Shown: piece after piece, positions 1,896 through 47,353 of the stretch
How the letters are laid out: every line of letters begins with the position of its first letter
Position numbering within the stretch: the stretch's first letter is position 1
Source: Candidatus Porifericomitales bacterium
GTDB taxonomy: Bacteria; Pseudomonadota; Gammaproteobacteria; CBDEFV01
NCBI GenBank assembly: GCA_965237735.1
Contig: CBDEFV010000007.1
Location: 399,305-463,304 of the forward strand
Length of the DNA: 64,000 nt
Direction: 5' to 3'
Notes under the pieces: generated by a model
Seen by the model: only the letters and a program-made list of their open reading frames with translations
Told to the model about the DNA's origin: nothing
Databases searched by the model: none
Position numbers and translations under genes: made by a program

Positions 1896-2802
1896 TGAAG
1901 TGCTCCTCAATAGTAGCTCCCCGAAGGTTCCCGCCTCCGGTGGGCCGGTTGGTTGTCAAGTTTTTTGGTCTGTTGCGTATTCCCTCGCCAGGGCTTTATA
2001 TTCTCCCGCCTACGGCAGGAGGAGGAGCTCAGCCAGAAGGTTTCCGCCCGCGGAAAGCGGCAGTGCCAAGGTTTGGAGGAGCCGGCCTGCGGACCGTTCA
2101 GTTCTGTATGTGGTCAGGTTGAACATGTCCCTATCATAGCAGTTCATGCGCCTCTGTCAAGCAAAAAAGCAAAATAAAAGGGCAAAAACTGCACCAACGC
2201 GGCCATAACGGCCGACAACAGCCCCTGGTGGGAGGGGCGGGAAGAGGGCGAACCGGCCCCCGACTTGCAGGGCCGCCTCTGCGACAGCGACGCCGGTCAG
2301 CCGGCAGCCCATCTCAACTCACGCTTTACGGTCTCAATCGACCGCTGCCCGATCTGCCCGCCCGCCGGCATTCGACGAGCCCAGGGGCGTGCCGACCCCG
2401 GCCATCGTCTTCGGCGGCCGCCGCGCCTCCCGGGTGGCCTCTTGGTGCGCGAAGTCGAAGACTCTCGGCCAGGGCGTGCTCACAGGCGCCTCCATGGCCT
2501 CTGAAATTACGCCGCCGGCGAAGTCGGAGCAACGAATAGCTGGACAGCCAAACGGCGGCCATGGCCGCCAGCCGGCTCTCTCCCCCTTATAAGCCCCTCC
2601 ACGACCTCGAAACAGGGCACGGGAAAAGCAAAGGGCCTGAGGGGGCGGCCAGGGGGACACTGCCCTTGGATTCTCTCTCCGCTTCGCGGCGGCCCTTGGT
2701 CCCTGCCAGCCTGGCAGTGGCGGCGTTTCCCTGCTGAGAACTGCTCCGCCCCCGAGGGCGACTGTTCGCCCTGAGTCGGGCGAGCACCGGGCATGGGCGC
2801 CG

Positions 2803-2838
2803 GCCGATGCCGTTGATGGTGCACTCAACCTGCCGCGC
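2803..2838. repeat. 36-nt fragment identical to internal leuA sequence (window 1198-1236), abutting the left inverted repeat
   Basis: gccgatgccgttgatggtgcactcaacctgccgcgcc occurs both inside leuA and at 2803-2838. The inverted repeat begins exactly at the shared cctgccgcgccc. Confidence 0.7.
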
Positions 2839-2867
2839 CCTCGCCCTGACCGCTTCTTGAATTTGCG

Positions 2868-2898
2868 TCGCCGGCGCTCCCTGTGCTATAATTGACGG
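2868..2898 (+). promoter_or_regulatory. sigma70-like promoter inside IR-L (TTGCGT -35, 18-bp spacer, TATAAT -10)
   Basis: The -10 hexamer is a perfect TATAAT at 2893-2898 with an acceptable -35 upstream. A mirrored copy lies in IR-R. This would give a ~350-470-nt GC-rich leader before the signal-peptide codons. Confidence 0.4.
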
Positions 2899-3185
2899 CA
2901 AGGCAGGTTCCGCCTCTCTCCCGGTGTCAGCGTTTTGCGGCCGGGGAGCGCTTCTGCAGGCGGCGGGGCCTCTTTCAAGCTCTATCATTCAGCCACGATC
3001 GGGGAGTTTTCCAGATGTTCAGCAGCACCAGGACGAGCGGCAGCGCAACCGGGCAAGCCGGGCCATCGGCCGCTTCAGCGGCGGCGAGAAGGCGCGGGGG
3101 GCCTGCTGTCTGCGTTGATTGCAACCCTGGGGCCGTCTCTGCGGCCACTGCCGGTCGGCCGCCGCCGCATCGCGCCCTCCTTAAG

Positions 3186-3207
3186 GGGGGGGGGGGGGGG
3201 GGGGGCT
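3186..3207 (+). repeat. 22-nt homopolymeric G tract in the leader of giant gene A (candidate slipped-strand phase-variation site)
   Basis: g x22 at 3186-3207. The equivalent position in IR-R, upstream of gene B, has only 6-7 C/G. Confidence 0.9.
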
Positions 3208-3253
3208 TGCTTCGCAGGCCCTCTGTTCACCCGGCGCCGGCGGGATTCTGCAG

Positions 3254-6200
3254 ATGGGCGGCCCAGCAGCGGTTAGCGCTGCCGCCCGGTTTGAGCGGGC
3301 CGGGCGGGTCGGGCAGTCGCGGCCATCGGCGGCAACCGCAGCATGCAGGGATCTGCCATCTGCGGCCTTGGGGCCGCCGCTGGCAGCCCCGCTGACGAGC
3401 CCGCTGACGACGCTGACGACCTGGTCCCGGCGAATCGCCGCCGCCGCCGTTCTGCTGGCCGCCGCCCTCATCACCGTCCTCCCCGCCTCGGCCCAGGAGC
3501 AACAGCCGCCGACCCTCACCCTCAGGGTGCTGCCCCCCGAGACGATTTCAGTGAACGAAGGAGATACAGCTTCGGGGGCGGTGTGCTTCGAGGTCGTGGG
3601 TCAACCACCCGAGGAGATTGTATTCCCGTTCGATATAGTTCTTTTCCTGGAATCGAAAGTTTTCAGTCCAACTGAGCATGAACCAGGAGGCCTCGGCAGC
3701 GCCCGCGAAAACATCGATTATGTAGCTGTGATAGGGCCTGTGAGGATTCGATGGCCGGCACCAGGGGCGAGCTTTTGTCGAATCTTTCCGATACAAACAA
3801 TTGAGGACCAAGAAGTAGAACCTGATGAGAGGTTCAGAATTCTAATAGAGTTGCTACACGGTCCCTCCGGGGTGCCGGTAATCTTACTTGGCCACGTCAT
3901 CACCTACATCATCCTCGACGACGACGGGCCCGTCGTATTTGCTATCCAGGACGTCGAAAGCGGCGTGTTTGACGACACCATAGTTCCCCCCTTTGAGGAG
4001 GGCGACGAGGAGGATGCTGGATTCAGGGAGATCTGCGCCCTGGTTACGAGCCACTCCAGAGGATTCCCGCGGGAAGCAGGGGTGACGCTTTCTCTCAGTA
4101 TGTCGGATGGCAGCGCCGTCTCGCCCCAGGATTACAGCTTATCAGGGAGCAGTGAGCGGCCGCTGTTTTTTCAGCAGGGCGACCGATGGGTTTGCACTCG
4201 CTTCGCACTGGATGTGGTGGATGACGAAATCTATGAAGGGGACGAGGATCTGCTCATCTCCCTGAGTTTGGAGGCGGGGTCGCCGGCGGACCTGAGGGTG
4301 TCGACTCCCAAGGCCCGCCTGAGGATCCTCGACAACGAGGAACCACCCGGCATCGATCTGTTCGACACGGCTGCAGCCGAGCGGACAGTGGATCGGTTGA
4401 CCGTGAGTGAAGGGAGTAACATCACCTATTATGTGGCGCTGAATTCACCGCCGAGCGAAAATGTGAATCTCCAGATCTTTATCGATGACCCGGTCGGCGA
4501 CGGCAGCACTGCCGTTAACAATCGATCTCAGCTACTGGGAGCGCCCCTGACGTTCACGCCGGCCGACTGGCAGAGCACGCAGGGGGTTCCTGTCATCCTG
4601 AATCATAACAACTATTTTGGCCCGAACCGGGAAGTGGTTATCCGCTACGATGCCGTCTCGGGCGCACCGGATTACGGTGCGGCGACCCTGACGCTGACGG
4701 TTCGCGACACTGACAGGGTTCCCGCTGTGGACATAGAGTTTACTTTCACGGATGATGGGCAGACGGTCACTGCGGATGATATTGATCACGATCGTTTTAC
4801 TGAGGGCCGTGCCCCGATCAGCCTGACGATCAAGGTCTTTGCAAGGAGAATGCGCGACAGGGCGGGGGCATTTTCCGAACCTTTCGATTTGACGATGGAA
4901 TTCCGGCCGGTGGTCTGGAATGAGAGGCAGGCCGCTGATTATTTGCTCGATTACAGGGTGGCGCCGCAGGAATTCATGCTGACCCTTCCGGCATTCGGGA
5001 GCGAGGTAAGCACAGTTGTAGACCTGTTTCTGATTGACGATGACATTGCGGAGCCGGACGAGAGTTTTCAAATCAGAGGCTACAAAAGCATGGAGGAGCG
5101 TTTTTTTCCCAGTCTTCATCGCCTGGCTAACCCGGAGGCCAGCGTGGCAATCAAAAGCGACGACCGACGGGGTCTTCTCGTCTCGGCGACGTCAATCCGC
5201 TCCCGTGAAGGAGAGGTCGGCGACTTCACGGTCAGACTGCTTTCGCAGCCGCCGGCCGGCGAGTCGGTGCGTGTGGACGTGAATCTCGACGATGTCCCCG
5301 GTCTCAGCTACCTGGAAGTTGACGGCGTTTCCCATCAGCTTTCCGGCGACTTGAGGCTGATCTTCACGGAGAACGGCTGGAACCGTCCCAGGAGAGTGAT
5401 CTTCAGTGCAGACAACGAGCTTTTCGGCCCGAACCCGGAGGTGACCATCGCGCTCATTCCCGGGGGGGCCGGTTACAACGAGAGTCACAAGGCTGAACTG
5501 ACGATAATCCTTGAGGATGAGGATCCTTTTCCCAAGGTGGGGGCTCTGTCCCTTGCCTTGCTGAGTGCTCCAGAAAATTTCTTCCCGACGATAGAAAGTC
5601 AAGAGTCGGTCGGGACGGTGGCATACAAAATCGTGGCCATGCTGGACAGACCGAGCTCTGAGGATATCGAGTTGTCCCTGTCCTTCGAGGGGTCTGCCGA
5701 TGAAGACGACTACAGGGTGGAACCAGCGGCCCCCAGCCTGACCGTTCCGGCATTTGAGCGGGTTGGAAGCACAACCATCAGGGTGACCTTTACGGACGAC
5801 GACATCGCTGAAGGCGTGGAACGGATTGACATCAGAATCAGCGAGGTTCCGGGGAACACTCTAGATCCTTCGCTTTCGGACATAATAAATTCCATCTTCA
5901 TCGCCGACGCGCTCGAGGACATGCGAGGCGTCGAGGTGTCGCCGCAGCAGCTGATCGTGGTGGAGGGCGGCGAAGCGGCCACCTACACCCTCGAGTTGAC
6001 TTCGCAGCCGAGCGGCCCCCTGACGGTGACGCTGACTCTGCAGAGCGGCGGCGACGGCGGTGAGGCGTCTGCTGTTCTTCCCGCCGTCCTGATCGAGCCG
6101 ATGGAGTTGAGTTTCGAGCGCCCGAACGATGCGCCCTGGTCTGAGCCCCGGGAGATCCGTGTTTCCGTGGCGGACAACGGGGTCGAAGAGGATCCGAGGC

Positions 6201-9200
6201 AGGCGACCATCGTCCACGGCTTAACAGGTTCGGACTACCAGAGCAACGGGGTGCCGGTGCCCGATGTCCTGCTGAGGGTGGTGGAGCGCGGCCTCGTCCT
6301 GACGGAGACAGCTGCAGTAAACGAAGGCGAAGAGTACCGCTACGAAGTGGCGCTGAGGTCGCCGCCAGCCGGCGCCGTCGAGGTGGCGGTGCTGGTCAGT
6401 CAGGGCCGGGCCCTGAGGAGCCTGGAGACCGATAATGGCCGGTTTGAGATCGCGGATCGGGACTCGGTGGAGGTGCCGGGGGTGCTGAGCTTCACGCCTG
6501 AAAACTGGCATCGCACCCAGTCGGTGATCGTCCGTACGACAGACAACGACTATTCATCGCCGGATGGCCTGGAACAGGTGCTCATCACGCACATCGCCTT
6601 GGGCGCGGATTACGGCGGAGAGAAGGCGACCCTGACCCTGACGGTGCTGGACAACTATGAGCCCGCCCGCAGCATCACCCTGAGCCTGAGGCCATCGCAG
6701 CTGAGCGAGGCGGCCGGCCGGGTGGTGGTGACCGTAACGGCGGGCATCGACAGGCCGCGCCAGCAGGATACGATGGTGCAGCTTCGTGTTGTCGCCGAAC
6801 CCGTTGACGATGACCCCGCCACCGGGGGGTACGCAACGGCTGGACGGAATTCTGACTATGCGGTGGACAGCGCCTCATTCTTCTTGGTCATAGAGGCCTA
6901 TGACAGCGGTGGAAGTGGAAACTTCACCCTGCTTCTGATCGACGACGACATCGATGAGAACGGTGGCGAGGTCTTTCTCGTCGCTGCCGTTGCTGATCTT
7001 GACAATGTGCGCGCGCATGGCACGGCGACCTTGACCATCATCGACGACGACGAGCGCGGCCTCCGGATCTCGAGGGAGCGGCTGTTCCTGGTCGAGGGCG
7101 GCGAGGCCGAGGTCTATTCTGTCCGCCTGACTTCGCAGCCGACGGCGCTGGTGGGGGTGTTCATCCAAGTCGACTACGGCGCCGCCATGGAGGGCATGGC
7201 CATGGATGGCATGGCCGACAGCGTCCTTTTGAACGGCATTCCAGAGCTGCTGCTGACCTTTGGAGTCAGCGGCGAGAACGCTTGGGATCAGGAGCAGGAG
7301 GTCAGGGTCACCCTGGAGGAGAACACCGACAGCAACGAAAACAGGGAGGCGATTCTCCGCCACAGTGCCGAGGGCGGCGATTACCAGGGTTTGCCAGGGG
7401 CTGCCGTCGCCCTGAGGCTCGCTGACCGTGGCATTCGCATCTCGCCGACAGAGCTGTCGGTTTTGGAAGGAGGGACCGCCGAATACAGTCTGGTGCTGCT
7501 TTCGGCGCCGACCGCATCGGTGCAGGTGCAGCTGAGCCTCAGCGACGCCGATGCCATCGATCATTTGGAAATCGGCGGGCAGCGGACGGCTGTGGCCTCT
7601 GATCCTCTGCCGTCGCTGACATTCACGACGGACAACTGGGATACTCCGCAGACGGTGAGGGTCCAGGCGCAGGACAACCCCTATTCGGGGGAGAATGAGC
7701 CCGTGACGATCAGCCACAGCGCGAGCAGCGACGATGAAGGCTACGCCGGACTGGCCATCGATGCTGTGGAGCTGACCATCGACAACGAGGATCTGGAGTC
7801 CGACATGCTCCTGCTGGAGGTGCGCCTTGGTGATTCGGGCGACTTCGGTCCTTTTGTCCAGTTTAATGAAGAGAGACCCTTGGGCGGCGCCCTCGTCGAC
7901 AATGTTGTGGATGTGCAGCTGAGGGCCCACCTGAACGAGGCGCCCTTCAGGGACGACCGGGTTCTGCTGCTGTCCGTTGACGAGGAACTGAGCCTCGCAA
8001 CGCTCGGCCGGGACTTCTCGGCCACTCTCACAGCCACCCCTGACGATCCTGAGGGAACAGGGATTGGCCAGGGGTGGATCGCTCCGGGGGCAGCTGCCCT
8101 CAGGCTGACGCTGCCGAAAGAGAGGACGACAATCACGGTGGGACTCGAGTTTCAGGTGAAGGCCGACCGGAGCGACGAAGATGATGGGGAGGATATCCAG
8201 ATAGGCGGCACCCTCGAGGACCTGAGCGCTCGGACGGCGGCTCCTGTCTTTCTGGATATCATCGACAACGATGTCCGCGGCCTTGACATTCGGCCGCAGG
8301 CCCTGACATTGGTGGAGGGGGGCGAGACCCGGACCTACGAGGTGCGCCTGACTTCGGAGCCGGACCCGGACCCGAACCGGGACGGGGTCCTGGCGCCTGC
8401 TGAGGGAGAAGTGTCCGTACAGATAAGAATCGCGGGCACTGAGACCCCGCCGGGCGCGGCGCCTGACCGCATCAAACGGGTTCCGAACTCCCTGGTGTTC
8501 GGAGGTGATTCAGGCCCTCAGTGGAATGAATGGCAGACCGTGGACGTCTCGCTGGCAGAGAACGACAGCCGGCATGACACCCGGGAGGCTTTTCTCCGCC
8601 ACAGCACCGAGGGCACGGACTACAGTGCCGCCCCTGCTTCGCAGGTCTCCCTGACGCTGGTGGACCGCCGCATCCTCATCTCGACGGACCGCCTGACAGT
8701 CGTTGAAGGCGGGGCAGCCAGCTACACCGTGACGCTGATCTCGCCGCCGACGGGAGAGGTGACCGTGCGGGTGAGCATCGCCCGGGGCCGTCTGGGCGCG
8801 GACGGCTCCGCTGCCGTCGCCGATGCCGTGCTGGCGGAACGGCCGCTGATCTTCGACGGGGACGACTGGGATCAGCCGCAGGCGGTGACGGTGCGGCTGG
8901 CGGACAACGACTATTCGGGAGAGAATCGGCAGATCAGGATGGAGCATGTCGCCGTCGGCGGCGGCTACGACAGCGCCCAGGCGGCGACGGTGACGCTGAC
9001 CGTCGTCAACGAAGAGGAGGAGGAGACGACGAAGGTCAGGCTGAGCCTGTCGCATGCGGAGTTGCGGGAAGATCAGGGCCCCGTGCCGGTGAGGGTCCGC
9101 GCCACCCTCGATGTGCCGCGCCAGCAGGATACGGTATTGACCCTTGTATTTGACGACATCCCCGAAGATTCTCCGGATGCAGCTGAGCTGGGCCTTGACT

Positions 9201-12200
9201 TTACGAGCGATCGGCAGTTGCCCCGCTTCATCATCCCGGCATTCGGTCGATATGGGGAGCTGGAGCTGACGCTGACTCCGATCAACGACAACATCGACGA
9301 GGGCGACAGCGATCCCCTCTTTTTCAGCGTTTTTACAGAGGGGGGGTTGACGGTGGTGCCGGCCCGCCTCGATATCCTCGACGACGACAGCGCCGGCGTT
9401 ACCGTGACGCCGGCGTCCCGGAGAGTGCGTCCCGGGCAGCCGGTCGGCTACGCTCTGGTGCTGGACACGGTGCCGAACTTCGGGACGGTGACGGTGATTG
9501 CGCGCGTCCGGGCTGCGCCCGGCTCTGAGGCCCGGGCGGAGGATATCGAAGTTCCGGGGCCGCTGAGGTTCAACGATGCGAACTGGGATCGGCCGCAGCA
9601 GCTGCGGCTCGAAGCGGCAGAGGAGGTCGGGGGCTTCGGCGGGCTGATCATTGAATTCGACGCAAGCAGCGAGGATCCGCCCTACAACATCGTTGCCGTC
9701 GCCTCGGCCACCCTCGAGCTGACTGACGTCGACACGAGCCTGCAGAGCCTGGAGCTGAGGCTGAGCCGCGGCGGCGAGCGGCTGCCCCTGAGGCAGCAGC
9801 CCGACGGCGACGTCGGCTTCGCTCCCCGGGTGGCCGATTACGAGGCCGAAATTCCGTCCGGCGCCCGCAGTGCCGTTCTGACGGCGACGCCGACTGTTAC
9901 CCGGGACAATGCCGGGGAGAGTGAACAGAGCCCCGGCGAGGTCTATCTCTTCCTCGACGGCGAGCCCCAGGGGAACGGCGCTGACGTCGCCGGCGACGAG
10001 GTTCGCCTGGACCTGTCGACGGGCGGGGAGCTCTTTGTCTTCGACATCGAGGTTTCGGTGGCGCTGCCGCAGGAAAACGGAGAGACCCCGCCTGCCGTCC
10101 AGAACTACCGCCTGACGCTGAGAAGAGCCCTGCCGGAGGGCGCCGGGCTGCATATCCTGGTCGTTGATGAGGACGGAGGGCGGACGCCGCTGACGGCCGG
10201 GACGCCGCTGCGGTTCGGCCCCGACGAGGAGGGCATGAATCTGATTTTCGTCGTCCGCGCCGGCGGCAACCGCTACCCCATCAGCGAACTCAGGGTCAAC
10301 CACGGCGACGACTTCACTCTCCTCAGCGAAGACGACGGCAACCCGACCCGGGTTGAGGAGGGCCGGCTCGCCCTGTCGCGGGGGGAGGTGGTTGCAGACG
10401 GCAGCTTCGAGACGCCGGTGCGGCTGGTACGCAACGGACCCGCTCTGTCTGAGGACTTCGACTTCCGCCTGAGCTTCAGGGCGACGGCGCAGCGGCCGCG
10501 GGCCGCCGGCGCCGAGGAGCTGAGTGCCGAACTCGCCGGCACCCTGGAGGCGAACAGCGAGACGGAGACGGAGATCCGCGCGAACTACAGCGGCGAGGCT
10601 CAGGGCGAAGAATTGCTGCCGGTCTCGACGACCGTCCGCGTCTCGGCCAACGGGCCGCTGACCCTCGTCTGGAGCCTCGGGCGCTCGGGCGGCGGCGACC
10701 GCTCCTTCAAGCAGTCGGACTTCACTTCCACCCTCAGCGTCGGCGAAACGGCGACCCTGAGGATGGCGCAGGACGACGATGAAGAGCTGCGGCAAGTCCT
10801 CTCACTGGACGGGAGTGAGGGCGAGGTCGAGGTCCGCATAGCGGCGACGCACGGAGGCTCGCTGTCGAAGATCCGGGACCCGGAGCAACTGAGCTTCACC
10901 CTTGTGTTCGAAAGGCCGCGGGCGCTGCTTCGTCCGGTCGTCGATGCCGAGCCGCTGCGGGCCTTCCGCGACCCGCTCTTCGTCTTTGTCGAGGAGGGCG
11001 AGCGGCTGAACCGGCAGAACCGGCGGCACCCGCCGGAGCTGGACCTGCAGTTGCCGCTCGAACTGGTGCTGACAGCGGACAGCACGCCGCTGCAGGGCAG
11101 AGACGGGATTCTCCGCGGCCTCGATCTGAGCCCGACGATGACCATCGGCGGCGAGGCGACGGAGGGACTGAGCCTCGGCGGCGGCTCGGGCCGCGATCTG
11201 CTGTTCGCCGCTGCCGAGCCGAGGAACGGTGTCGCCGTCGCCGTGGGAATCAGAGTGCCGGACCCGCGGGTGCGCGTCGATGAGCTGCGCTTCGACGCCC
11301 ACTTCCTGTCGCTGGATCACCCCCTGGAAGTGCCCTTCGACAGGGTCAGCGGCAACGACTTCAAGGGCGACGAGAGGGTCTTCAGCATCTCCCTGAGGGG
11401 CGAGCAGCCGGCGGCCGAGACCTGGACGCTGAGCGTGGCCAACGTCCTCGAACTCGAGGACAACGGCTACAAGGCGGAGGAGGTCATCCAGGTGCCCGGG
11501 GAGCGGCTGCTGAACATCATCAGAAAGCCTGCCGGCGGCGGCGACAACTATAGCTCTGAGATCGTCTCGGTGCAGGTCTTCGACGACATCGTCCCCGGGA
11601 TTGAACCCGGCGCTCCCACTGAGGAGCTGACCGCCGAACAGCTGTCGGCGACCCTGGCCGTCGACGGGGCGGTGCCGCCCGAAGTGCGGCAGCTGCTCGA
11701 CGCCGAGGGGCCGGCGACCCTGACCCTGATCGTCGGCGTCACCCCGGCCCACGATCGCCCGGCGACCGGGGAGGAGCGGCAGGCGCGCACCCGTACGCGG
11801 ACTCTGAGGATCCGCCGCCTGCGGGCCGACGCCACGGACTCGAGGGTCGCGCTCCGCTTCGCCTACACCCCTCCCCCCGGCTTGGGGCGGGCGGGCGTCT
11901 TCAACCGCATCATCCCGCTGGCGACCGGCATCTCTGCGAGGCTGGAGGCGACGCTCAGCCCGGCGGCCCTGGTGCTGCCGAAGGGCGGGACAGCCGAGGT
12001 GCTGCTGGTGGTCAGCAACCTGCTGCTCGGCGAGGATCCCTGCAGCGTCCTCGTTTTCCGGCACTCCGCCGATCTGCAGGTGGCGCCCCGGGCCTGCGCC
12101 GGGGTGGACCGGACCAACCGCCGCTTCGAGCAGCGGCTCGAGGTGCGGGTGGACCAGGACGCGACCGCTCCCGACTACGTGATTCGGGTCGATGTGAACC

Positions 12201-15190
12201 TCGGCGGCAGGAGGAACCTCAGGGCCGAGTTCCGCATCGACATCAACGATGCGCCCCGCTACCAGGGCGAGACGACCCTGAGGGTCAATGAGAGCGGTGT
12301 GGAGACGACCGTCATCGAAGTGCAGCTCGGCTCGGCTTCGGATGGCGTTGCCGGCGTCGAGGAGTATCTGCTGCGGGTCGTCGACCCCGACGGCGGCCTC
12401 AGGTTCCTGGAGCCGTCACAGCTGCGCCTGGAAGTGATCGGCTTCGAGGACGAAGGTCGGCCGATTGGCGATTTGCGACACTCGAACAACTACTTTGACC
12501 TGGAAGCCAGCGTCGTCGAACAGAAGAAGACCGATGAGCAGGCCGGGCCCGAAGGCAACGGCAATGAGCTGTCCCTGACCCTGAGGATCAGCGGCAAGCT
12601 GGCGACGCCGTTCGGCAGCGTCGTCGAGCTGCGGCTGTCCGGCGTCGGCGACGGTTACGGCGAGGGTTTCGAGCAGCGGCTGCGGGTGCGGGTCGAGGAT
12701 GTGGCGCCGACCTTCAGGCTGAGGGCGGAACTGGACGACAAGGCCGTGCCCGTCTATCTCGAGCAGCAGCAGCCGCTCGCCCTGGAGCTGAGCTTCTCGG
12801 ACGGCAGCAGGGACGGCACTGGCGGGGCTCCGACGTTCGTCGTGGCGGAGGCGCCCGACGATCTGGCGGTCCGGGTCGACGCCGTCAACCGACGGGTCAC
12901 CCTGAGGCGGCTGAACGCCCCGGGGAGGGGGGGCCTGGTGCGGCTGGCGGTGCTCGACTCCCAGGGCGGCCGGACGGAGCTGCCGTTCACTGTCGAACGC
13001 CCCGCCCTGCTGCCGCAGATCAGGCCGCAGAACCCGCTGTTCATCGTCGTCGGCGGGACAGAGGAACGGGCTGTGGAGCTGGAGCAGGGAACGGGCATAG
13101 AAGACCTGGAGTGGACCGCCTCGGTCTCAGTCGGCTCCGGTCTCGGGATCGAGCTGAGTCGCCCCGACAGTCGTGGCCATGTCGACCTGGAAGTGACGGC
13201 GTCGCCCTCGGCGCCGCCCGGCCAGGCGCGGATCCTCCTCGAGGCGAGCGCTTACGACGGCATCCATCGGCGGCGGGTCGAGATGCCGGTGGTGGTGGTG
13301 CCGGCCGAGCCGAAGCCGCGGCTGCAGCTGAGCCTGAAGGCCGTTGTCGACGACAGAGAGCCAGCCGTGATTTCAAGCTTCCCGGCGAACGATACCCTCT
13401 TCGTCCAGGCGACCCTGGAGGGAGATGTGCCGGAAGAGCTGTTGGACAGGGTCGCCACCTTCTCGATCGCTATAGCCAAAGTGGGGGCAGCTGGCCCCGG
13501 CGCCGCCCGGACCACGACCTTGACGACTGTCGAGGTCGGGGCCGACGAGATTGACATTGAGGTGCTTGTGGAGACGGGGGCGCTGACGACGGCAGAGGGG
13601 GCCTTGCTCGGTCTTCAGCCGGGCGATGTCGTCGAAGTGTCGATTGAACACCTGTGGGCCGACGGCGAGATCATCGCCGGCGACCGCCTGCGCCTGCCGG
13701 TGACCACGACGATCAGTGCGTCGAGCCTCGACAGCGACAACGACGGCGTCGTCGACGCCTTCGACGACAACGAGGATCCGTCGACCCTGGGGTCGGCGGC
13801 GGCGCCGATCACGGCGGCCGTCGCCCGGGTGACGGAGGACCGCATCGATGTGCAGGGCGCCAGGCAGGTGTCGCTGGCGCTCGGCAATCTGGCGCGCTCC
13901 CTCGGCCTCGGTCAGTGCGGCGGCGTGACCATGGCGCTGACGGTGGGCATGGATGGAGCTCCGCCTGTGCTGAGCGGCTGCGGCGGCCTGTCGGAGAACT
14001 TCGCAGGCCTGGCCCTATCGCAGAGCCTGGCGCTGGCAGATCGCTTCGGACAGGGAGAATACCAGCTGATCGACCTCTCGGCCGGCTTCGACAGCAGCGC
14101 CGTCAACCACGACGAGCCCCTGGTCGTCAGCCTGCCGTTCGACCCGCAGACGACCCGCGTCTACCGCTACGACGACCAGCTCGAGGCCTGGGTGCCGGTC
14201 ATCGACGCCGGCCTGCCGGGTCAGGACGGCGGCCCGGGGGCGCTGAGCAATATCAACCGCGATTGCGACACCTGCTTCTACGGCGTCGACAGCGACCGCG
14301 ACGGCTCGGTCGAGATGCTGCTGCTGCTGCAGACGGTCGAGGATCTGAGCCTGGCCCTGGCCGCTGATGCCTCCGGCTACCAGAACAGGGTCATTGAGCT
14401 CGAGGTCGACCCCGAGGCCGAAGAGAACCCGCTCCTGATCATCCCGCTCGAGCTGGGCGCCGATCTGGAGAAGGTCCGGGTCATAACAGAAATGGACGGC
14501 GTTTTCGGCGTCTACAGCCAGACGGCGACCATAGTCCGCCGCAGGGACGTCAGCACCGGCCCGGCTGTGGTGCTGCGCGGCCTGAGGCGCACGGCGGACG
14601 GCCCCGAGGAGGTGCGGGTCGAGGCGCTGGACGCCGGCGGCGGCGCGGTCGCCACCCTGACCCTGCTGGTCGCGGTTGCCAATCGGCCGCCGGACATCCT
14701 CTTCATGCGGGACGGCGAGGCGACGACTTCGATTCGTATTGAAGCCGACGGCGACCCGGTGATCGTGATCGTGCAGGTCGAGGACCCCGTCGACGGCGAC
14801 AGCAGCTTCGAGCTGCAGCTGCTTGACGACCGGGGCATCGCCGAGCTGGTGCCGCGGCTCAACCGCGGCGGCAGCGTCACCAACGAGCTGAGGCTGACGC
14901 CGGACGCCGGCGGCAGGAATTTCGAGCTGAGACTGAAGGCGACGGATCTGACCGACGACAGCGAGACCTTCGCTTCGCTGAGCGTCTGCGTCCTCGACGG
15001 GGACGGCCGCTGCCGCCGCTCCACGACCGTTGCCGCCGGCGGCGGCGGCGGTGGCGGCAGCAGCGGCCCGCTGTGGCTGCTCCTCGCTGTTCCCGCGGCC
15101 CTGCTGCTCTGGCGGCGGCGGCCGGCCCTTCCCCGGCGCCGACAACAAGTCGGGTCTTTCCCGGCAGGCAGGGTCTCTGCCGTCCGGTAG
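3254..15190 (+). CDS. Giant secreted/surface Calx-beta repeat protein A (~3980 aa) with Sec signal peptide and GlyGly-CTERM-like C-terminal sorting tail
   Basis: Contiguous 11.9-kb ORF. Signal peptide WSRRIAAAAVLLAAALITVLPASA/QEQQ; the true start may be a TTG near 3371, since there is no ATG close to the signal peptide. Dozens of ~100-aa repeats carry DY..G..F..GE...I.DDD..E.DE.F (Calx-beta-like) signatures. C-terminus is GGGGGGGSSGPLWLLLAVPAALLLWRRRPALPRRRQQ. Confidence 0.85.
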   Translation: MGGPAAVSAAARFERAGRVGQSRPSAATAACRDLPSAALGPPLAAPLTSPLTTLTTWSRRIAAAAVLLAAALITVLPASAQEQQPPTLTLRVLPPETISVNEGDTASGAVCFEVVGQPPEEIVFPFDIVLFLESKVFSPTEHEPGGLGSARENIDYVAVIGPVRIRWPAPGASFCRIFPIQTIEDQEVEPDERFRILIELLHGPSGVPVILLGHVITYIILDDDGPVVFAIQDVESGVFDDTIVPPFEEGDEEDAGFREICALVTSHSRGFPREAGVTLSLSMSDGSAVSPQDYSLSGSSERPLFFQQGDRWVCTRFALDVVDDEIYEGDEDLLISLSLEAGSPADLRVSTPKARLRILDNEEPPGIDLFDTAAAERTVDRLTVSEGSNITYYVALNSPPSENVNLQIFIDDPVGDGSTAVNNRSQLLGAPLTFTPADWQSTQGVPVILNHNNYFGPNREVVIRYDAVSGAPDYGAATLTLTVRDTDRVPAVDIEFTFTDDGQTVTADDIDHDRFTEGRAPISLTIKVFARRMRDRAGAFSEPFDLTMEFRPVVWNERQAADYLLDYRVAPQEFMLTLPAFGSEVSTVVDLFLIDDDIAEPDESFQIRGYKSMEERFFPSLHRLANPEASVAIKSDDRRGLLVSATSIRSREGEVGDFTVRLLSQPPAGESVRVDVNLDDVPGLSYLEVDGVSHQLSGDLRLIFTENGWNRPRRVIFSADNELFGPNPEVTIALIPGGAGYNESHKAELTIILEDEDPFPKVGALSLALLSAPENFFPTIESQESVGTVAYKIVAMLDRPSSEDIELSLSFEGSADEDDYRVEPAAPSLTVPAFERVGSTTIRVTFTDDDIAEGVERIDIRISEVPGNTLDPSLSDIINSIFIADALEDMRGVEVSPQQLIVVEGGEAATYTLELTSQPSGPLTVTLTLQSGGDGGEASAVLPAVLIEPMELSFERPNDAPWSEPREIRVSVADNGVEEDPRQATIVHGLTGSDYQSNGVPVPDVLLRVVERGLVLTETAAVNEGEEYRYEVALRSPPAGAVEVAVLVSQGRALRSLETDNGRFEIADRDSVEVPGVLSFTPENWHRTQSVIVRTTDNDYSSPDGLEQVLITHIALGADYGGEKATLTLTVLDNYEPARSITLSLRPSQLSEAAGRVVVTVTAGIDRPRQQDTMVQLRVVAEPVDDDPATGGYATAGRNSDYAVDSASFFLVIEAYDSGGSGNFTLLLIDDDIDENGGEVFLVAAVADLDNVRAHGTATLTIIDDDERGLRISRERLFLVEGGEAEVYSVRLTSQPTALVGVFIQVDYGAAMEGMAMDGMADSVLLNGIPELLLTFGVSGENAWDQEQEVRVTLEENTDSNENREAILRHSAEGGDYQGLPGAAVALRLADRGIRISPTELSVLEGGTAEYSLVLLSAPTASVQVQLSLSDADAIDHLEIGGQRTAVASDPLPSLTFTTDNWDTPQTVRVQAQDNPYSGENEPVTISHSASSDDEGYAGLAIDAVELTIDNEDLESDMLLLEVRLGDSGDFGPFVQFNEERPLGGALVDNVVDVQLRAHLNEAPFRDDRVLLLSVDEELSLATLGRDFSATLTATPDDPEGTGIGQGWIAPGAAALRLTLPKERTTITVGLEFQVKADRSDEDDGEDIQIGGTLEDLSARTAAPVFLDIIDNDVRGLDIRPQALTLVEGGETRTYEVRLTSEPDPDPNRDGVLAPAEGEVSVQIRIAGTETPPGAAPDRIKRVPNSLVFGGDSGPQWNEWQTVDVSLAENDSRHDTREAFLRHSTEGTDYSAAPASQVSLTLVDRRILISTDRLTVVEGGAASYTVTLISPPTGEVTVRVSIARGRLGADGSAAVADAVLAERPLIFDGDDWDQPQAVTVRLADNDYSGENRQIRMEHVAVGGGYDSAQAATVTLTVVNEEEEETTKVRLSLSHAELREDQGPVPVRVRATLDVPRQQDTVLTLVFDDIPEDSPDAAELGLDFTSDRQLPRFIIPAFGRYGELELTLTPINDNIDEGDSDPLFFSVFTEGGLTVVPARLDILDDDSAGVTVTPASRRVRPGQPVGYALVLDTVPNFGTVTVIARVRAAPGSEARAEDIEVPGPLRFNDANWDRPQQLRLEAAEEVGGFGGLIIEFDASSEDPPYNIVAVASATLELTDVDTSLQSLELRLSRGGERLPLRQQPDGDVGFAPRVADYEAEIPSGARSAVLTATPTVTRDNAGESEQSPGEVYLFLDGEPQGNGADVAGDEVRLDLSTGGELFVFDIEVSVALPQENGETPPAVQNYRLTLRRALPEGAGLHILVVDEDGGRTPLTAGTPLRFGPDEEGMNLIFVVRAGGNRYPISELRVNHGDDFTLLSEDDGNPTRVEEGRLALSRGEVVADGSFETPVRLVRNGPALSEDFDFRLSFRATAQRPRAAGAEELSAELAGTLEANSETETEIRANYSGEAQGEELLPVSTTVRVSANGPLTLVWSLGRSGGGDRSFKQSDFTSTLSVGETATLRMAQDDDEELRQVLSLDGSEGEVEVRIAATHGGSLSKIRDPEQLSFTLVFERPRALLRPVVDAEPLRAFRDPLFVFVEEGERLNRQNRRHPPELDLQLPLELVLTADSTPLQGRDGILRGLDLSPTMTIGGEATEGLSLGGGSGRDLLFAAAEPRNGVAVAVGIRVPDPRVRVDELRFDAHFLSLDHPLEVPFDRVSGNDFKGDERVFSISLRGEQPAAETWTLSVANVLELEDNGYKAEEVIQVPGERLLNIIRKPAGGGDNYSSEIVSVQVFDDIVPGIEPGAPTEELTAEQLSATLAVDGAVPPEVRQLLDAEGPATLTLIVGVTPAHDRPATGEERQARTRTRTLRIRRLRADATDSRVALRFAYTPPPGLGRAGVFNRIIPLATGISARLEATLSPAALVLPKGGTAEVLLVVSNLLLGEDPCSVLVFRHSADLQVAPRACAGVDRTNRRFEQRLEVRVDQDATAPDYVIRVDVNLGGRRNLRAEFRIDINDAPRYQGETTLRVNESGVETTVIEVQLGSASDGVAGVEEYLLRVVDPDGGLRFLEPSQLRLEVIGFEDEGRPIGDLRHSNNYFDLEASVVEQKKTDEQAGPEGNGNELSLTLRISGKLATPFGSVVELRLSGVGDGYGEGFEQRLRVRVEDVAPTFRLRAELDDKAVPVYLEQQQPLALELSFSDGSRDGTGGAPTFVVAEAPDDLAVRVDAVNRRVTLRRLNAPGRGGLVRLAVLDSQGGRTELPFTVERPALLPQIRPQNPLFIVVGGTEERAVELEQGTGIEDLEWTASVSVGSGLGIELSRPDSRGHVDLEVTASPSAPPGQARILLEASAYDGIHRRRVEMPVVVVPAEPKPRLQLSLKAVVDDREPAVISSFPANDTLFVQATLEGDVPEELLDRVATFSIAIAKVGAAGPGAARTTTLTTVEVGADEIDIEVLVETGALTTAEGALLGLQPGDVVEVSIEHLWADGEIIAGDRLRLPVTTTISASSLDSDNDGVVDAFDDNEDPSTLGSAAAPITAAVARVTEDRIDVQGARQVSLALGNLARSLGLGQCGGVTMALTVGMDGAPPVLSGCGGLSENFAGLALSQSLALADRFGQGEYQLIDLSAGFDSSAVNHDEPLVVSLPFDPQTTRVYRYDDQLEAWVPVIDAGLPGQDGGPGALSNINRDCDTCFYGVDSDRDGSVEMLLLLQTVEDLSLALAADASGYQNRVIELEVDPEAEENPLLIIPLELGADLEKVRVITEMDGVFGVYSQTATIVRRRDVSTGPAVVLRGLRRTADGPEEVRVEALDAGGGAVATLTLLVAVANRPPDILFMRDGEATTSIRIEADGDPVIVIVQVEDPVDGDSSFELQLLDDRGIAELVPRLNRGGSVTNELRLTPDAGGRNFELRLKATDLTDDSETFASLSVCVLDGDGRCRRSTTVAAGGGGGGGSSGPLWLLLAVPAALLLWRRRPALPRRRQQVGSFPAGRVSAVR

Positions 15191-15865
15191 CCGGCTCGGG
15201 GCCCGGCTCCCCGCCCCCTCTTCAGGGTGTGGAATCAGCCCGATGTTCGCAGCAGCATCTTCGCCGAGCGGTGGCGGCGGCGGCGGCAGCAGCGGCCCGC
15301 TGTGGCTGCTCCTCGCTGTTCCCGCGGCCCTGCTGCTCTGGCGGCGGCGACCGGCCCTGCCCTGGCGCCGACAACTCTGGAGCCGGGTCTTTCCCGGCAG
15401 CGGGGTCTCCGCGGCCCGGTAGCCAGCTCAGGGCCCGGCCCCCCGCCCCCTCTTCAGGGTGTGGAATCAGCACGATTTTCGCAGCAGCATCCTCGCCGGA
15501 CAGCGGCGGCCCGTTGTGGCTGCTCCTCGCTGTTCCCGCAGCTCCGCTGCTCTGGCGGCGGCCGGCCCTCCCCCCGTCGCCGACAACAAGTCGGATCCTT
15601 CCCGGCAGGCAGGGCCTCTGCGGCCGGCAGCCGGCTTGGGGCCTGGCCCCCCGCCCCCTCTTCAGGGTGTGGAATCAGCGCGATTTTCGCAGCAGCATCC
15701 TCGCCGGACAGCGGCGGCCCGTTGTGGCTGCTCCTTGCTGTTCCCGCGGCCCTGCTGCTCTGGCGGCGGCGGCCGGCCCTTCCCCGGCGCCGACAACTCT
15801 GGAGCCGGGTCTTTCCCGGCAGGCGCCTGCCGCGGCGCCGGCTCTCCGATTACTGCTGCCGGAGA
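15191..15865 (+). repeat. Tandem array (~3 extra copies, ~230-bp period) of promoterless tail cassettes re-encoding the gene A C-terminal sorting signal
   Basis: Units begin gtgtggaatcagc... and each encodes ...SGCGIS(P/A/T)(M/I)FAAASSP(S/D)G(n)SSGPLWLLLAVPAALLLWRRRPALP...stop. Copies differ by SNPs and indels and sit in different frames. Confidence 0.8.
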
Positions 15866-15952
15866 AAGTCCTGTAGCGAGGCGAGCAGCGCCCGGTGGAA
15901 GGGCGCTCGGGCTGCTCGATCATCATCATGTGGCCCGTCGCCAGAGATCTCG
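15866..15952 (-). pseudogene. Displaced fragment of the alpha/beta-hydrolase gene 3' end (native copy 30464-30560)
   Basis: The sequence ctgctgccggagaaagtcctgtagcgaggcgagcagcgcccggtggaagggc...catcatcatgtggcccgtcgccagagat matches the hydrolase C-terminus (GHMMMIEQPE...LQDFLRQQ*). Confidence 0.65.
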
Positions 15953-16480
15953 TCGTCACCGCGGTGCCGCCGCTGACGGCCTCTGGACGCGCAAGGAAAA
16001 TCTGGTCCTGGCCATCGAGACCGCCGACTGCATACCGCTGCTGCTGGCCGCCGACGACGGCGCGATCGTCGCCGCCCTGCACGCCGGCTGGCGCGGATTG
16101 GCCGGCGGCATCATCGACGCCGCCCTCGAGGCCCTGCCCTGTCGCCCTCAAAAGCTGCGGGCCTGGATCGGCCCGGCCATCTCGCAGCAGCACTACGAGG
16201 TCGGCAGCGAGGTGCGTCAGACCTTCCTCGAGCAGGATGGGCGCCCTCGCGTCCTTTTTCCTCCCCTCGCCGCCCAGAACGGCCGAAGCCGACGCCTCCC
16301 CGGGTCTCCGCTGGCTCGCCGACCTGCCCGGCATGGCCGCACACCAGCTGCGCCAGTTCGGATTAACGCAAATTTACAACTGCGGCCTCTGCACCTTCGC
16401 CCGCCCCGAACTGTTTTTTTCCTACAGGCGCGGCGACCGTCACAAATTTATTGTCACCTTCATCTGGCGGCAGCCGGCGA
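15953..16480 (+). pseudogene. Partial frameshifted copy of pgeF (3' two-thirds) fused by microhomology to the hydrolase fragment
   Basis: Encodes DGLWTRKENLVLAIETADCIPLLLAADDGAIVAALHAGWRGLAGGIIDAALEALPCRPQKLRAWIGPAISQQHYEVGSEVRQTFLEQD, then continues after a frameshift to ...FSYRRGDRHKFIVTFIWRQP. The junction gccgccgctgacggcctc matches the native pgeF sequence gccgcagctgacggcctc. Confidence 0.75.
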
Positions 16481-16745
16481 CCTCCCGCCAGGCCCTCACG
16501 GGTCGGGACGGCTCCGTTTCCAGCCCGCAGGAGCAGGTTTTTAGCGGGCGCGCTCCCTGCGCCTCCTGAGCCACACCATAGCGGCCCCCAGAGCCAGGGC
16601 CAACAGCAACAGATCGCTCCAGCCGACGGCTCCGATGCCGCTGGAGCGGATACTCAAGGTGACCTCGTATTGGTCGACCTCCTCGCCGTTGTCATCGAAG
16701 ACAAGGAAGCGGACATCAATATCGGCCTCAGGCCGAGGGGAAGGC
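16481..16745 (-). repeat. Dispersed copy of the pgeF-downstream segment, encoding the C-terminal tail of the small secreted protein
   Basis: gagccacaccatagcggcccccagagccagggccaacagcaacag...ccgctggagcggatactcaaggtgacctcg matches 36255-36340 and 36505-36600. On the minus strand it encodes ...SSGIG.VGW..LLL.ALALGAAMLWLRRRRQ. Confidence 0.7.
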
Positions 16746-16794: not shown

Positions 16795-17150
16795 AGCCTG
16801 TGCCCGGCCGGCCGGCCCTCGCCGGCGGGCCCGGGCGCCGGCGATGCGCAGGGCCTGGCGTTTCTTCGGCAGCAGGGCCTTGCCGCCGTAACCCGTCCCG
16901 GAGAAGGGCCCAGGAATCTGTAGCCTGTGAACAGGGGGCCAAGCCTCGAGCCGGCTGCAGAGCGGCAGAGGCCCCGCCTGCCGGAAAAGGCCTGGCAGCT
17001 ATTGTTGTCGGCAACCGCGGAGGGTCGGTTGGCGCCGCCGGAGCCCGTCCCGGAGAAGGGCCCAGGAAGCTGTAGCCTGTGAGCAGGGGGCCAAGCCCCG
17101 AGCCGGCTGCAGAGCGACAGAGACCCCGCCTGCCGGAAAAGGCCTGGAAG
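16795..17150 (-). repeat. Tandem array (2 extra copies, ~146-bp period) of the region immediately downstream of gene B's C-terminal tail
   Basis: ctattgttgtcggcaacc...gcctgccggaaaaggcctgg(a/c)ag is repeated at ~16850, ~16996 and in the native copy at 17151. Confidence 0.75.
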
Positions 17151-20100
17151 CTATTGTTGTCGGCAACCGTGGAGGGCCGGTCGCCGCCGCCGGAGGGTCA
17201 CCAACGCCGCCGGGGCGGCGAGGAACAGCCACAGCAGGCCGCTGCCGCCGCCGCCGCCGCCGCCGCCGGAGGAGCGAGAGGCCGCGGGGCATTTGCCGTC
17301 TTCATTGAGGACACAGACGGTCAGTCGCTCGGAGAGCGTCCCCCCGTCGTCGTCGGGATCGGTCAGATCGGTGGCCCTGACCCTCAGCCTGAAGGGCGAG
17401 CGGGCAGCGCCCGGGGTCAGTACCAGTCTGTGCTCAACCACAAAGACCGCGGGATCGTTGACAGAGGGCATCGCCCTTGACACCAGCCGGGCAATCTCAT
17501 CGTCGCCGGGCTTCGCCAGTTCCAGCCTGAAGCTGTCGTCGCCGTCGGGGTCGGTGATGATCACCCTGACGACCGTTTCCGTGTTCGGCTCCAGGCTGAT
17601 CGTCGTGGTTTCCTCGCCGTCCAACTCGAAGGTGATGACCGGAGGCTGATTGCGAACCCCGACCTGGAGGGTGAAGGAGGCGACGGCTGCTCCGCCGTCA
17701 TCGTCAAACAGCTCGACCAGCACCTCTTCGGGCCCGCCGAGGGTGCGCTTGCTACCGGTCAGAATCAGGGCGGGGCCGGCTGCAACGGTGTTGCTGAATT
17801 CGCCCTCGACATTGTCGCTTCCCGTGACGACCGGAGTCAGACCCGGGCGCAGGCCGGACAGGGGGATGACAGTTCCGTCCGCCCCGGCATCCAGCTCGAG
17901 GCGGCGGTCGCGGAACTCTTCGCCCACCTCAAGGTTCAGCGGCTCTTCCACGGACCGCAGCAGCAACAGCAACTCGACCGAGCCGTCGCGGTCGTCGTCG
18001 ACGCCGTAGAAGCAGGTGTCGCAGTCGGCGACGCCTTCCAGGGCTCCGGCGCCGCCGGCGCCACCGGGCAGACCGGCGTCAATCACCGGCACCCAGGTCG
18101 CTTCGACGAGGCGATAGACCTCGTAGGACAGGTGCTCCCCGGGATGGGGCGGCAGGTTGATCAGCACCAGCTCGTTGGCTTCGGTCTCAGAGCTGTCGAA
18201 GCGGATCGAGAGATCGACGATCAGGTAATCCCCCGCGCCGCCGCCGAAACCACCAGCAGACAAGGCCTGAGTCACGGCCTCTGCCGTGTCGAGGTTTTCA
18301 AAGTCGGTCAGCAGGGCGTCGCCGCAACCGCTCAAACCGGCGACGGTACCGTCCATGGCCACCATCAGCGCCAGGGTCACGCCGCCGCACTGGCCGAGAT
18401 TGAGGGAGCGCGCCAGGTTGCCGAGCGACAGCGACAGCTCGTCATCCTGCACCTCGACGCCGGCGTCCGTCACCGCGGCGACGGCGGCCTCGATCGGCCC
18501 CAGAATGGCGGGGTCGACTTCGTCGCCGGCGGCGTCAACCAGGCCGTCGTTGTCCGTGTCGATGAAGGCGTCCAGAGGCTCGGCTGAGTCGCGCAGGTCG
18601 ACGACCGGCAGGCGCAGGCGGTCGCCCTCTATGACTCCTGAGCCGAAGAAGTGACTGATCGAGATCTCCACCACCTGGCCGTCAGCAACATCCAGTCCCT
18701 GCAGTCCAGTAGCCGAGGCTGTCATCAACGCCAGCCCGACACGGAGGTCGGCATTGACCTCGACCGTCGTCGTCAGTTCCCACTCGACAGTGGCAGTGGC
18801 TATCGGCTCTCCGTCGGGGCCGAGCCGGGCGATGCTGAGCGTGAAGGTCGTGACGCTGCCGACCTCAATCTGCTGCGGCAGCTGGCCTGCCAGGGTCGCC
18901 TCGACGAAGAGGGTGTCGGTCAGCAGGAAGCTGGAGACCGTCGACCCTGCGGTCGTCGGATCGGCGGGGTCCGCGGCCTTCAGACTCAACTGCAGGCGCG
19001 GCCTGGGAGCGGGCGCCACCACCACCACGGGGAGCTCTGCCGTCCGCTGCATGCCGTCAGCGGAGGTCGCGGTCAACTCAAGCATGAAGGCCCGGCCGGC
19101 CACTGCCAGCAAAGCGCTCACGGCCACCCGGCCGCTGCCATCGTCCAGGGTCTCCACTACGGCGTTGAGATCCTCGTGCCCAGAGGCTGTCCAGATCACC
19201 TCCAGGTCGGTGGCCTCGGTGAAACTCAGCTCCCGCACGACCGGGTTGTCATCGCCGGCAACCACCAACAGCGGGCTCGGCGGCAGAATCTGCGGCAACA
19301 GCGACGGGCGCTCAATGTTGAGGGTCACCTCTGTCCGCCCGCCCTGGGAGTCGACCACCACCAGGGTTATTTGCTCATCCTCGTCGTCCTGAGAGTCGTT
19401 CAGGCGTATCAGGGTGACTTGTCGCTGCTCCCTGTCGAACCGGACCACCAGATCGTCCGGCGCATGCTGCACGACGACGACCGGAAGCTGGTCCCCAGGG
19501 GTTGCGCCTCTCCTGCCGTCCGAGAACTCATCCAGCTTCAGGACAACTTCCCGCTGGTCGGCGAAGACAGTGACCGTGGTCGTCGCCAACATAAAAGTCG
19601 GCGCCACATCCTCGACCTGGACGAGCAGGCGCTGGTTGAGCACATCGTAACCGTCGGTGGCGCCGGACAGGCGCAACTCGACGACACTGCCGAAGGGCGT
19701 CGCCAGCCGGCCGGTGAGGGTCAGGGTGACGAAGAGCTCATTGGCGCCCCCTGCCAGATCCCTCCGTTCGACGGAGCCGGACGCCAGACTGAAGTAGGGC
19801 ACCAACTCCTGTACTCCCGTGCCAAAGGTGAACGGCTCTGAGTTGTTGTCGCCTAGGACCGCCTCCAGCATCAAATCATCCGGGCTCAGCTCCATCAGGC
19901 CGCCGTCGGGGTCGTGGACGGTCAGGACATAGGCCTGGATGCCGCCGGCGGCCGCATCGCCGTCCTCTTTGACTGTCAGCCGGGTCTCGCCGACATATTC
20001 CGGAGCATCGTTGATGTCGATGCGGAACTCGGCCCGGGCGCTCCTGCCGCCGAGACGCACATCTATCGAAACCGGATACCCGGCCCTGTCCGCACTCTCC

Positions 20101-29906: not shown

Positions 29907-30094
29907 CAGTTATCAGCAAGGAAACGCCGCCACTGCCAGGCTGACAGGGGACGCCACCTCGATCAATCCGCCGGCGGCGCCGACCCACAGACACAGCAGC
30001 AGAGCGAGAGCAAGGCCGACCAGCGGATAGAAGGGAAGGGACAGGCCGATCCCGGCCGGCGCCGCCGGCAACGGCAGCACCCTGAGAAATTTCG

Positions 30095-30145
30095 CCGCCG
30101 GATTGACTTCCACCGGGCGCTGTTCGCCTCGCTGCAGGACTTTCT
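30095..30145 (+). repeat. Inverted ~45-bp copy of the alpha/beta-hydrolase 3' end
   Basis: cttccaccgggcgctgttcgcctcgctgcaggactttctccggcagcagtaatc is the sense-strand 3' end of the hydrolase gene, read here on the + strand. The same segment lies on the - strand at 30464-30512. Confidence 0.75.
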
Positions 30146-40039: not shown

Positions 40040-40089
40040 GCCGCTGAACCGGCAGGGGAGAACGGCAGCTGCGTCGGCAGGCCGGGCCG

Positions 40090-47346: not shown

Positions 47347-47353
47347 TGGGACC

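Follow-up and report, generated by a model that had tools for sequence, protein, structure and literature searches.

A 21-nt poly-G tract in the predicted leader of one of two paralogous giant genes, a candidate contingency repeat in a high-GC gammaproteobacterium

The giant gene pair and its surroundings

The window, that is, the whole 64-kb stretch of DNA that was analysed (66.7% GC), carries a convergent pair of paralogous giant genes:

3368-15190, + strand: giant gene A, 3940 aa from TTG, with coding periodicity; encodes a signal peptide, Calx-beta repeats and a C-terminal tail
17151-29366, - strand: giant gene B, 4071 aa from ATG 29366; paralogue of gene A and convergent with it

Both products contain Calx-beta repeats and end in a Gly run, a hydrophobic helix and an RRR tail, and they share an identical signal sequence (...WSRRIAAAAVLLAAALITVLPASA, followed by QEQ). 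In gene A this hydrophobic sequence is encoded from ~3425, and the signal peptide ends at ASA, directly before QEQ. The sorting-like C-terminal tail corresponds to no NCBIfam class, the one MYXO-CTERM match, for B, being below threshold. Over the first ~500 residues the two proteins share 58% amino-acid identity, and the greater part of their coding DNA fails to align. With its signal peptide, Calx-beta repeats and membrane-anchor-like tail, the product of gene A belongs to a class whose genes are usually the ones tied to contingency repeats.

The open reading frames are longer than the genes as given above (3254-15190 on the + strand for A, 17151-29843 on the - strand for B), and the ENA gene call for A starts at ATG 3254 and yields a product of 3978 aa. 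In the body of gene A, the GC fraction at codon positions 1, 2 and 3 is 0.70, 0.45 and 0.82, and this periodicity is found only from ~3370 onward; between 3100 and 3370 all three phases lie at 0.70-0.82. At the gene B counterpart of ATG 3254, a stop follows after seven codons. TTG 3368 in A and ATG 29366 in B, which are one alignment codon apart, thus appear to be the translation starts most consistent with the sequence. Upstream of them lie the following promoter and leader features:

2863-2892, + strand: predicted sigma-70-type promoter of gene A, with a -35-like TTGCGT (2863-2868), an 18-nt spacer and an extended -10
2884-2892, + strand: extended -10 of gene A, TGCTATAAT, identical in sequence in A and B
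29843-29851, - strand: extended -10 of gene B, TGCTATAAT, located by motif count
2829-3148, + strand: promoter and first part of the leader, ~99% identical to the B copy (29906 to ~29592, - strand)
2899-3367, + strand: predicted untranslated leader of gene A, ~469 nt, without codon periodicity and with the poly-G tract inside it

Just two copies of the extended -10 motif TGNTATAAT exist in the window, one in each leader (A and B), against 0.03 expected. A generic promoter scan made no call at the gene A site, because the -35 element matches at just 3 of 6 positions. From the position of the extended -10, transcription of gene A would start near 2899. The A/B alignment over 2829-3148 contains 313 matches, 2 mismatches and 5 gap columns, and the ~99% identity of this block between the paralogues suggests functional constraint or homogenisation. 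Over 3206-3367 the alignment has 152 matches against 9 mismatches, with 14 gap columns from 4 indels, so that an earlier description of the two leaders as otherwise near-identical, made from the sequence alone, is apt upstream of the tract and less so downstream of it. Between the conserved block and the signal peptide, A and B are separated by six indels, none of them a multiple of 3. Together with a codon periodicity that begins only at ~3370, these indels place the tract in a non-coding leader.

The locus around the pair is rich in duplications and gene fragments. Nine long-period tandem arrays (units of 93-281 nt, 2-6 copies, 84-96% identical) are found in the window:

15058-15824
16882-17195
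32455-33578
36098-36593
40101-40660
45539-46095
47080-47482
48767-49289
52113-52741

Several of them lie inside or between genes, conjugation genes included, and such a density of tandem arrays is unusual for a bacterial genome. An independent ENA contig (L084) contains the seven arrays that fall within 28429-50039 as well, so that an error confined to a single assembly does not account for them. Just past its stop codon, gene A is followed by ~3.5 tandem copies of its own sorting-like C-terminal cassette (GG..GPLWLLLAVPAALLLWRRRPALP; 15058-15974), and further copies related to it, some in each orientation, are found at 30107-30586, upstream of the promoter of gene B; these copies could be spare 3' ends for recombination, or duplication debris.

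Just upstream of the gene A promoter lies a ~50-nt fragment of leuA (2802-2853, - strand, with the QVECTINGIG motif), within an 83-nt insert found only in A (2746-2828); it is 90% identical to the intact leuA ~1 kb away. The fragment suggests that the giant-gene block was inserted or rearranged beside leuA. A partial Cu-oxidase_4 gene (pgeF/yfiH-like) at 15960-16651, between A and B, is 89.6% identical to a full copy downstream of rluD (~35400-36520). F-type conjugative transfer genes (TraC, signal peptidase, TraU, TraN, TraF, TraH, TraG) occupy ~37289-50039, ~7 kb from gene B, and an integrative conjugative element or plasmid-derived segment thus adjoins the giant-gene pair.

The lineage appears to be poorly sampled, since the best LeuA identities to GTDB representatives are 64-67%, all of them in Gammaproteobacteria in the GTDB sense. 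Two congener ENA contigs (L082, which is ERZ25072076 ctg245873, 2.29 Mb, and L083) encode LeuA proteins that are 91-92% identical. Both keep the leuA-TPMT-acyltransferase-dnaJ-dnaK-grpE synteny and both have tsaD upstream of leuA, in place of the giant genes, which makes the A/B pair lineage-specific at this site. The N-terminus of the giant genes has no relatives among GTDB species representatives; in the JGI metagenomes, a protein-pattern search returned no relatives, and the sequence made up of the left flank and the G run has no exact match. As neither the gene nor its leader has relatives in these searches, comparison is limited to paralogue B.

The poly-G tract, its origin and its length in two assemblies

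Two homologous G runs of very different length occupy the leaders of the pair:

3185-3205, + strand: poly-G tract in the gene A leader, 21 nt, while no other homopolymer in the window exceeds 8 nt; an independent ENA contig from the same strain has G20 at this site
29556-29561, - strand: run of six Gs in the leader of gene B, homologous by the A/B alignment to the G21 tract

The sequence of 3170-3215 reads TCGCGCCCTCCTTAA-G21-CTTGCTTCGC. The sequence-only reading had reported a 22-nt poly-G run at 3186-3207; the run is real, and its length and coordinates are corrected here to 21 nt and 3185-3205. That reading was right about its rarity. After the tract, the longest homopolymers in the 64 kb are 8 nt long, the counts of G runs of 5, 6, 7 and 8 nt are 60, 13, 3 and 1, followed by the one run of 21, and about 8e-6 runs of at least 21 G or C are expected in the window from base composition, so that the tract is not a chance feature. 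No other homopolymer of 10 nt or more was found in a further 31 kb of DNA from the same strain, or in 36 kb from two congeners. The rate of slippage climbs steeply with homopolymer length, and a run of at least 20 G is unlikely to have a single inherited length, whatever its function. More than 7 mononucleotide units was applied as the slippage threshold for contingency repeats (PMC7302503), and the tract, with 21 G here and 20 in the ENA contig, exceeds it; in line with the sequence-only reading, it is much longer than the runs at which slipped-strand mispairing starts to be frequent.

The tract starts 293 nt downstream of the extended -10, ~286 nt from the presumptive transcription start, and lies 163 nt upstream of TTG 3368. 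Its placement between the predicted promoter (extended -10 at 2884-2892) and the signal-peptide codons (from ~3425), in the leader of a gene for a secreted giant protein of surface type, agrees with what had first been read from the sequence. In contingency loci the repeat lies in a promoter, a 5'UTR or the 5' part of a coding region, typically where the gene specifies a surface structure, and the position of the tract is of this kind. The only strong -10 in the promoter region is at 2887-2892, and the tract begins at 3185; no promoter-like -35/-10 pair was found around it, which sets it apart from promoter-spacer switches of the fim, porA or opc type.

At the homologous sites, gene B has TTAAA-G6-CTTGC and gene A has TTAA-G21-CTTGC, with the flanks conserved on both sides. 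The earlier expectation of 6-7 residues at this point of the gene B leader is thereby made precise (G6), as is the claim that the long tract belongs to A and not to B (G21 versus G6). Because the flanks are colinear and conserved, the tract in A is an in-place expansion of a short run plus an A-to-G change. An insertion or an assembly mis-join was considered as its source and is ruled out by flanks that are perfectly colinear with B. The tract thus exists, lies in the leader of gene A alone and originates from a short run that both paralogues have at this site.

A second assembly of the locus was located via the LeuA gene next to A (ENA ERZ26167216 ctg493031, 6.96x). Over 11,896 aligned bases, the sole difference between this contig and the window is G20 instead of G21. 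By coordinate arithmetic the contig ends inside gene B, near 22.9 kb of the window, and ctg486694 (4.94x), from the same sample, covers the window from 28429 onward; since the ENA contigs are broken there, the window derives from another assembly of this strain, one of greater contiguity. Over 21.6 kb, ctg486694 differs from the window by four indels and zero substitutions (G7/G6, G5/G6, +A and a 3-nt indel, at 28739, 29205, 30530 and 31203-31205), and the ENA copy of B contains homopolymer indels and is interrupted by contig ends. Differences confined to small indels are typical of a low-coverage (5-7x) long-read consensus. As the differences between the assemblies are all of this type, two of them in short G runs, the 20 versus 21 may be consensus noise; it is compatible with true heterogeneity and does not demonstrate it. 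That both assemblies have ~20 G is nevertheless a strong argument against the tract being an artefact.

Predicted folding and reading frames of the leader

Two further features of the gene A leader include the tract:

3175-3190, + strand: small hairpin CCCTCC-TTAA-GGGGGG, conserved, with a 3' arm made up of the first Gs of the tract
3015-3395, + strand: upstream ORF from ATG 3015 through the tract to TGA 3393-3395, with a Shine-Dalgarno (SD) sequence GGGGAG 8 nt upstream

In predicted folds of the gene B leader, G6 either supplies the 3' arm for an 8-bp hairpin (GCCCUCCU/AGGGGGGC) or pairs with the downstream GCAGGCCCC (~10 bp), the two pairings being mutually exclusive. In A, by contrast, the 21 Gs would permit the upstream-arm and GCAGGCCCC pairings simultaneously. 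The ViennaRNA G-quadruplex model predicts a quadruplex at 15 G or more, with four tiers at 19-22 G and five at 23 G or more. The predicted local MFE with the quadruplex is -99.8 versus -71.8 kcal/mol, a gain of 28 kcal/mol, and no quadruplex is possible in the B leader in this model. With room for at least four G-runs of at least three G, as an intramolecular G-quadruplex requires, the G21 tract is a putative quadruplex former. Neither leader as a whole folds more stably than shuffled sequence (z = -0.5 and -0.1), and Rfam searches of the whole window at the gathering threshold and of 2700-3500 at a permissive E-value gave chance-level matches only, with no riboswitch or known leader among them.

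When the tract was varied from 6 to 24 G within the full leader, the predicted unpaired probability stayed at 0.24-0.34 near TTG 3368 and at 0.37-0.47 near ATG 3015. The structural difference between A and B is thus predicted to be large; near a length of 21, by contrast, a step of a single G should have no structural effect. Since folding and accessibility are unaltered by one G more or less, an ON/OFF effect of single units is left without a visible mechanism, and the proposal that length variation switches gene A on or off finds no support in the predicted folding or start accessibility.

Among the mechanisms considered, only a frame-based one is sensitive to a single G. ATG 3015 has the strongest SD duplex of the candidate starts (-7.6 kcal/mol; the others -5.5 and -4.9), and the TGA of its ORF lies 25 nt past TTG 3368. 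For tract lengths n of 6 to 25, the arithmetic of the frame is simple: n = 1 mod 3 (19, 22) leads to a fusion to gene A, n = 0 mod 3 (21) to the stop at 3395 and n = 2 mod 3 (20) to a stop at 3276. The gene A frame itself contains a TAA (3182-3184) immediately before the tract. A homopolymer that acts by frameshift is expected to lie in a translated frame, and the sequence around the tract has no coding periodicity. An upstream in-frame leader peptide, as suggested by the sequence-only reading, accordingly fares unevenly. Frame arithmetic from an SD-bearing ATG speaks for it; the reading frame has no coding signature and no homologue, and it is broken by indels. The possibility that the tract lies within a real N-terminal coding extension of gene A is ruled out by codon-position GC, the substitution pattern and the absence of homologues. 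The lack of SD sequences at the other starts was also considered as proof that translation begins at ATG 3015, an argument weakened by the many housekeeping genes here that lack an SD.

Possible roles of the tract

G/C homopolymers subject to slipped-strand mispairing are known from genes for surface structures in several bacteria, as intragenic poly-G/C frameshift switches in Campylobacter, Neisseria and Haemophilus and as a poly-C promoter-spacer switch in Bordetella fim. In those systems the tract lies in the coding sequence or in the -35/-10 spacer, and here it lies in neither. The hmw1A and hmw2A genes of Haemophilus influenzae are two paralogous loci with repeats of independent length. 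They resemble the present pair in that they are paralogues and in having a repeat in the long leader of giant adhesin genes, with a hairpin that has a complementary arm. The hmw1A transcript includes the repeat in its 5'UTR, where it acts via a hairpin processed by RNase III (PMC12721329). The hmw repeat is a heptanucleotide, (ATCTTTC)n, unlike the homopolymer here, and RNase III processing is demonstrated there, whereas the hairpin here has just 6-8 bp plus imperfect extensions.

Closer in sequence are two G repeats that act from outside the coding region. The G(n) tract upstream of the Moraxella catarrhalis uspA1 ORF changes the mRNA level ~21-fold (PMC7302503), and of the tract lengths of 8-13 G, 8-10 G give low and 11-12 G high mRNA (PMC7302503). 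As in gene A, the repeat stands upstream of a large surface adhesin ORF; in Moraxella its length alters the mRNA level in a graded high/low manner and not by frameshift. In uspA1, however, single-unit changes matter, and both the variation and its effect have been shown experimentally, whereas the tract described here has 20-21 G, lies 163 nt from the start codon and belongs to an uncultured organism. The Helicobacter pylori tlpB leader (tlpB-hp0102) contains a repeat of 6-16 G that exerts graded control and is bound by the C/U-rich loop of RepG (PMC8295292). Here too a homopolymeric G repeat lies in an mRNA 5'UTR, and 6 G versus a long run resembles B versus A; a defined small RNA partner, RepG, exists there and no partner RNA was found here, and H. 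pylori is AT-rich, compared with 67% GC here. With 21 G, the tract is longer than either of these characterised switches (8-13 G in uspA1, 6-16 G in tlpB). By its sequence, and by analogy with these systems, it is a candidate further case of the known leader and contingency G repeats.

The reading that we tentatively favour, as the leading candidate rather than a settled one, is that the tract is an unstable expansion of the leader that changes the amount of gene A transcript relative to B via RNA or DNA structure, and thus a graded contingency repeat. A G6-7 hairpin arm, conserved in a leader of ~470 nt common to the paralogues, would have expanded in gene A only, thereby uncoupling A from B. 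The G run would act on structure, in the leader RNA or in the non-template DNA strand: a G-quadruplex (at 15 G or more), longer pairing with the adjacent upstream C-rich segment, or the two combined could form, and full-length gene A transcript would become more or less abundant as a result. Replication slippage would let the length of the tract drift within the population, and the effect expected is graded or threshold-like, not a strict ON/OFF per G. Our inferences here are that the leader is transcribed across the tract, that the tract is hypermutable in this organism and that it acts on expression at all.

The same expansion may be a neutral accident, a run lengthened by slippage in a non-coding leader that is unstable and has no regulatory role. 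We consider this somewhat unlikely, even though the region of the tract has no coding signal and contains several other A/B indels, the predicted accessibility of the start codons is independent of tract length, and the locus is plastic, with nine long-period tandem arrays and the leuA and pgeF fragments around both genes; relatives with 91-92% identical LeuA, moreover, do without giant genes beside leuA. Against drift stand the G-run counts, which drop ~4-fold per added G and reach a maximum of 8 elsewhere in ~95 kb of same-strain DNA, so that a lone 21-run in the promoter-proximal leader of a surface-protein gene is unlike the drift seen elsewhere in the genome. The upstream leader block is ~99% identical between the paralogues, and 15 G or more are predicted to form a very stable quadruplex; Guo and Bartel reportedly found in 2016 that RNA quadruplexes are rarely neutral in bacterial transcripts. 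A further alternative is a three-state translational switch, where ribosomes start at ATG 3015 and the length of the tract modulo 3 sets their frame. At n = 1 mod 3 they would enter the giant ORF with the signal peptide buried, at n = 0 mod 3 they would terminate 25 nt past the SD-less TTG, leading to coupling or occlusion, and at n = 2 mod 3 they would stop early at 3276. One paralogous giant adhesin would in this way be set independently of its twin, possibly in combination with a G-quadruplex lock at 15 G or more. The arithmetic is compatible for all tract lengths of 6-25, ATG 3015 combines the best SD complementarity with a location inside the 99% conserved block, gene B is open and in frame from the homologous ATG 29720 into its giant ORF, and the A/B indels fall into frame-restoring pairs (1+11, 14+1, 2+1). 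Such pairwise restoration has a chance of ~1/8 by our own arithmetic, however, and in a leader this rich in GC, stretches of more than 60 codons without a stop occur in each of the three frames. GC in the frame of ATG 3015 is reversed relative to coding sequence (second position 0.78-0.85, against 0.45 in gene A; third position 0.65-0.72, against 0.82), and third-position substitutions are not enriched (6/12, p ~0.18). Residues 1-170 of the extended B N-terminus align with nothing among 1.84 billion representative proteins, an extension of 118-155 aa would probably bury the Sec signal peptide, and the SD is weak evidence where many genuine genes have none. Taken together, these points make a frame-setting role improbable.

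Instead, a C/U-rich small RNA acting in trans, or a poly-G-binding protein, could dock at the G run, whose length would decide between repression and activation. RepG and tlpB in H. pylori are a precedent, the tract has a leader position, and some of the structures in the predicted ensemble leave it unpaired; with no candidate small RNA identified, and no Rfam match in the window, we regard docking as a very improbable explanation. Equally far-fetched is an error of base-calling or polishing that conceals a true run as short as that of B, an artefact which the sequence-only reading had itself named as able to undo its proposal. The contig names (ctg..._6.96x_l) resemble the output of a long-read metagenome assembler, probably metaMDBG, whose polishing step fixes mostly homopolymer errors (PMC11392814); coverage is just 5-7x, and the assemblies differ solely by indels, two of them in short homopolymers. 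Yet the site has 20 G in one assembly of the strain and 21 G in the other, the errors elsewhere amount to 1 to 3 nt and not to the +14-15 nt needed to turn G6-7 into G21, and flanks perfectly colinear with B speak against a mis-join.

Should the tract prove to work as a contingency repeat, it would be a case of a giant adhesin tuned by a repeat in an environmental, high-GC gammaproteobacterium that has not been cultured, from a lineage distant from the host-adapted pathogens that account for nearly all known switches of this type. The pair would also be a natural experiment, in which paralogues with a common promoter and leader have G6 and ~G21, respectively, and would allow a test of the effect of a long G run or G-quadruplex in a bacterial 5'UTR. 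In practical terms, the assembly consensus at the tract is unreliable by at least 1 nt, and gene callers may pick different starts. The 3978-aa product of gene A has no exact match in the collection searched, and the version in the collection therefore differs from that of the window; gene B products from two candidate starts likewise had no exact match, and two of the ctg486694 indels would frameshift gene B in the ENA version.

Two smaller features of the leaders also differ between the paralogues. A second G run is G6 in A (3097-3102, GCGCG6) and G7 in B (29634-29640, GCG7), a difference of one G, and the G7 run of B is the sole C7 on the plus strand of the window. The palindrome CTGCCAGcCTGGCAG is present upstream of both promoters, at ~2704-2718 and 29931-29945, with one mismatch in B and at unequal distances from the two promoters because of the insert found only in A, and could be an operator or a terminator remnant.
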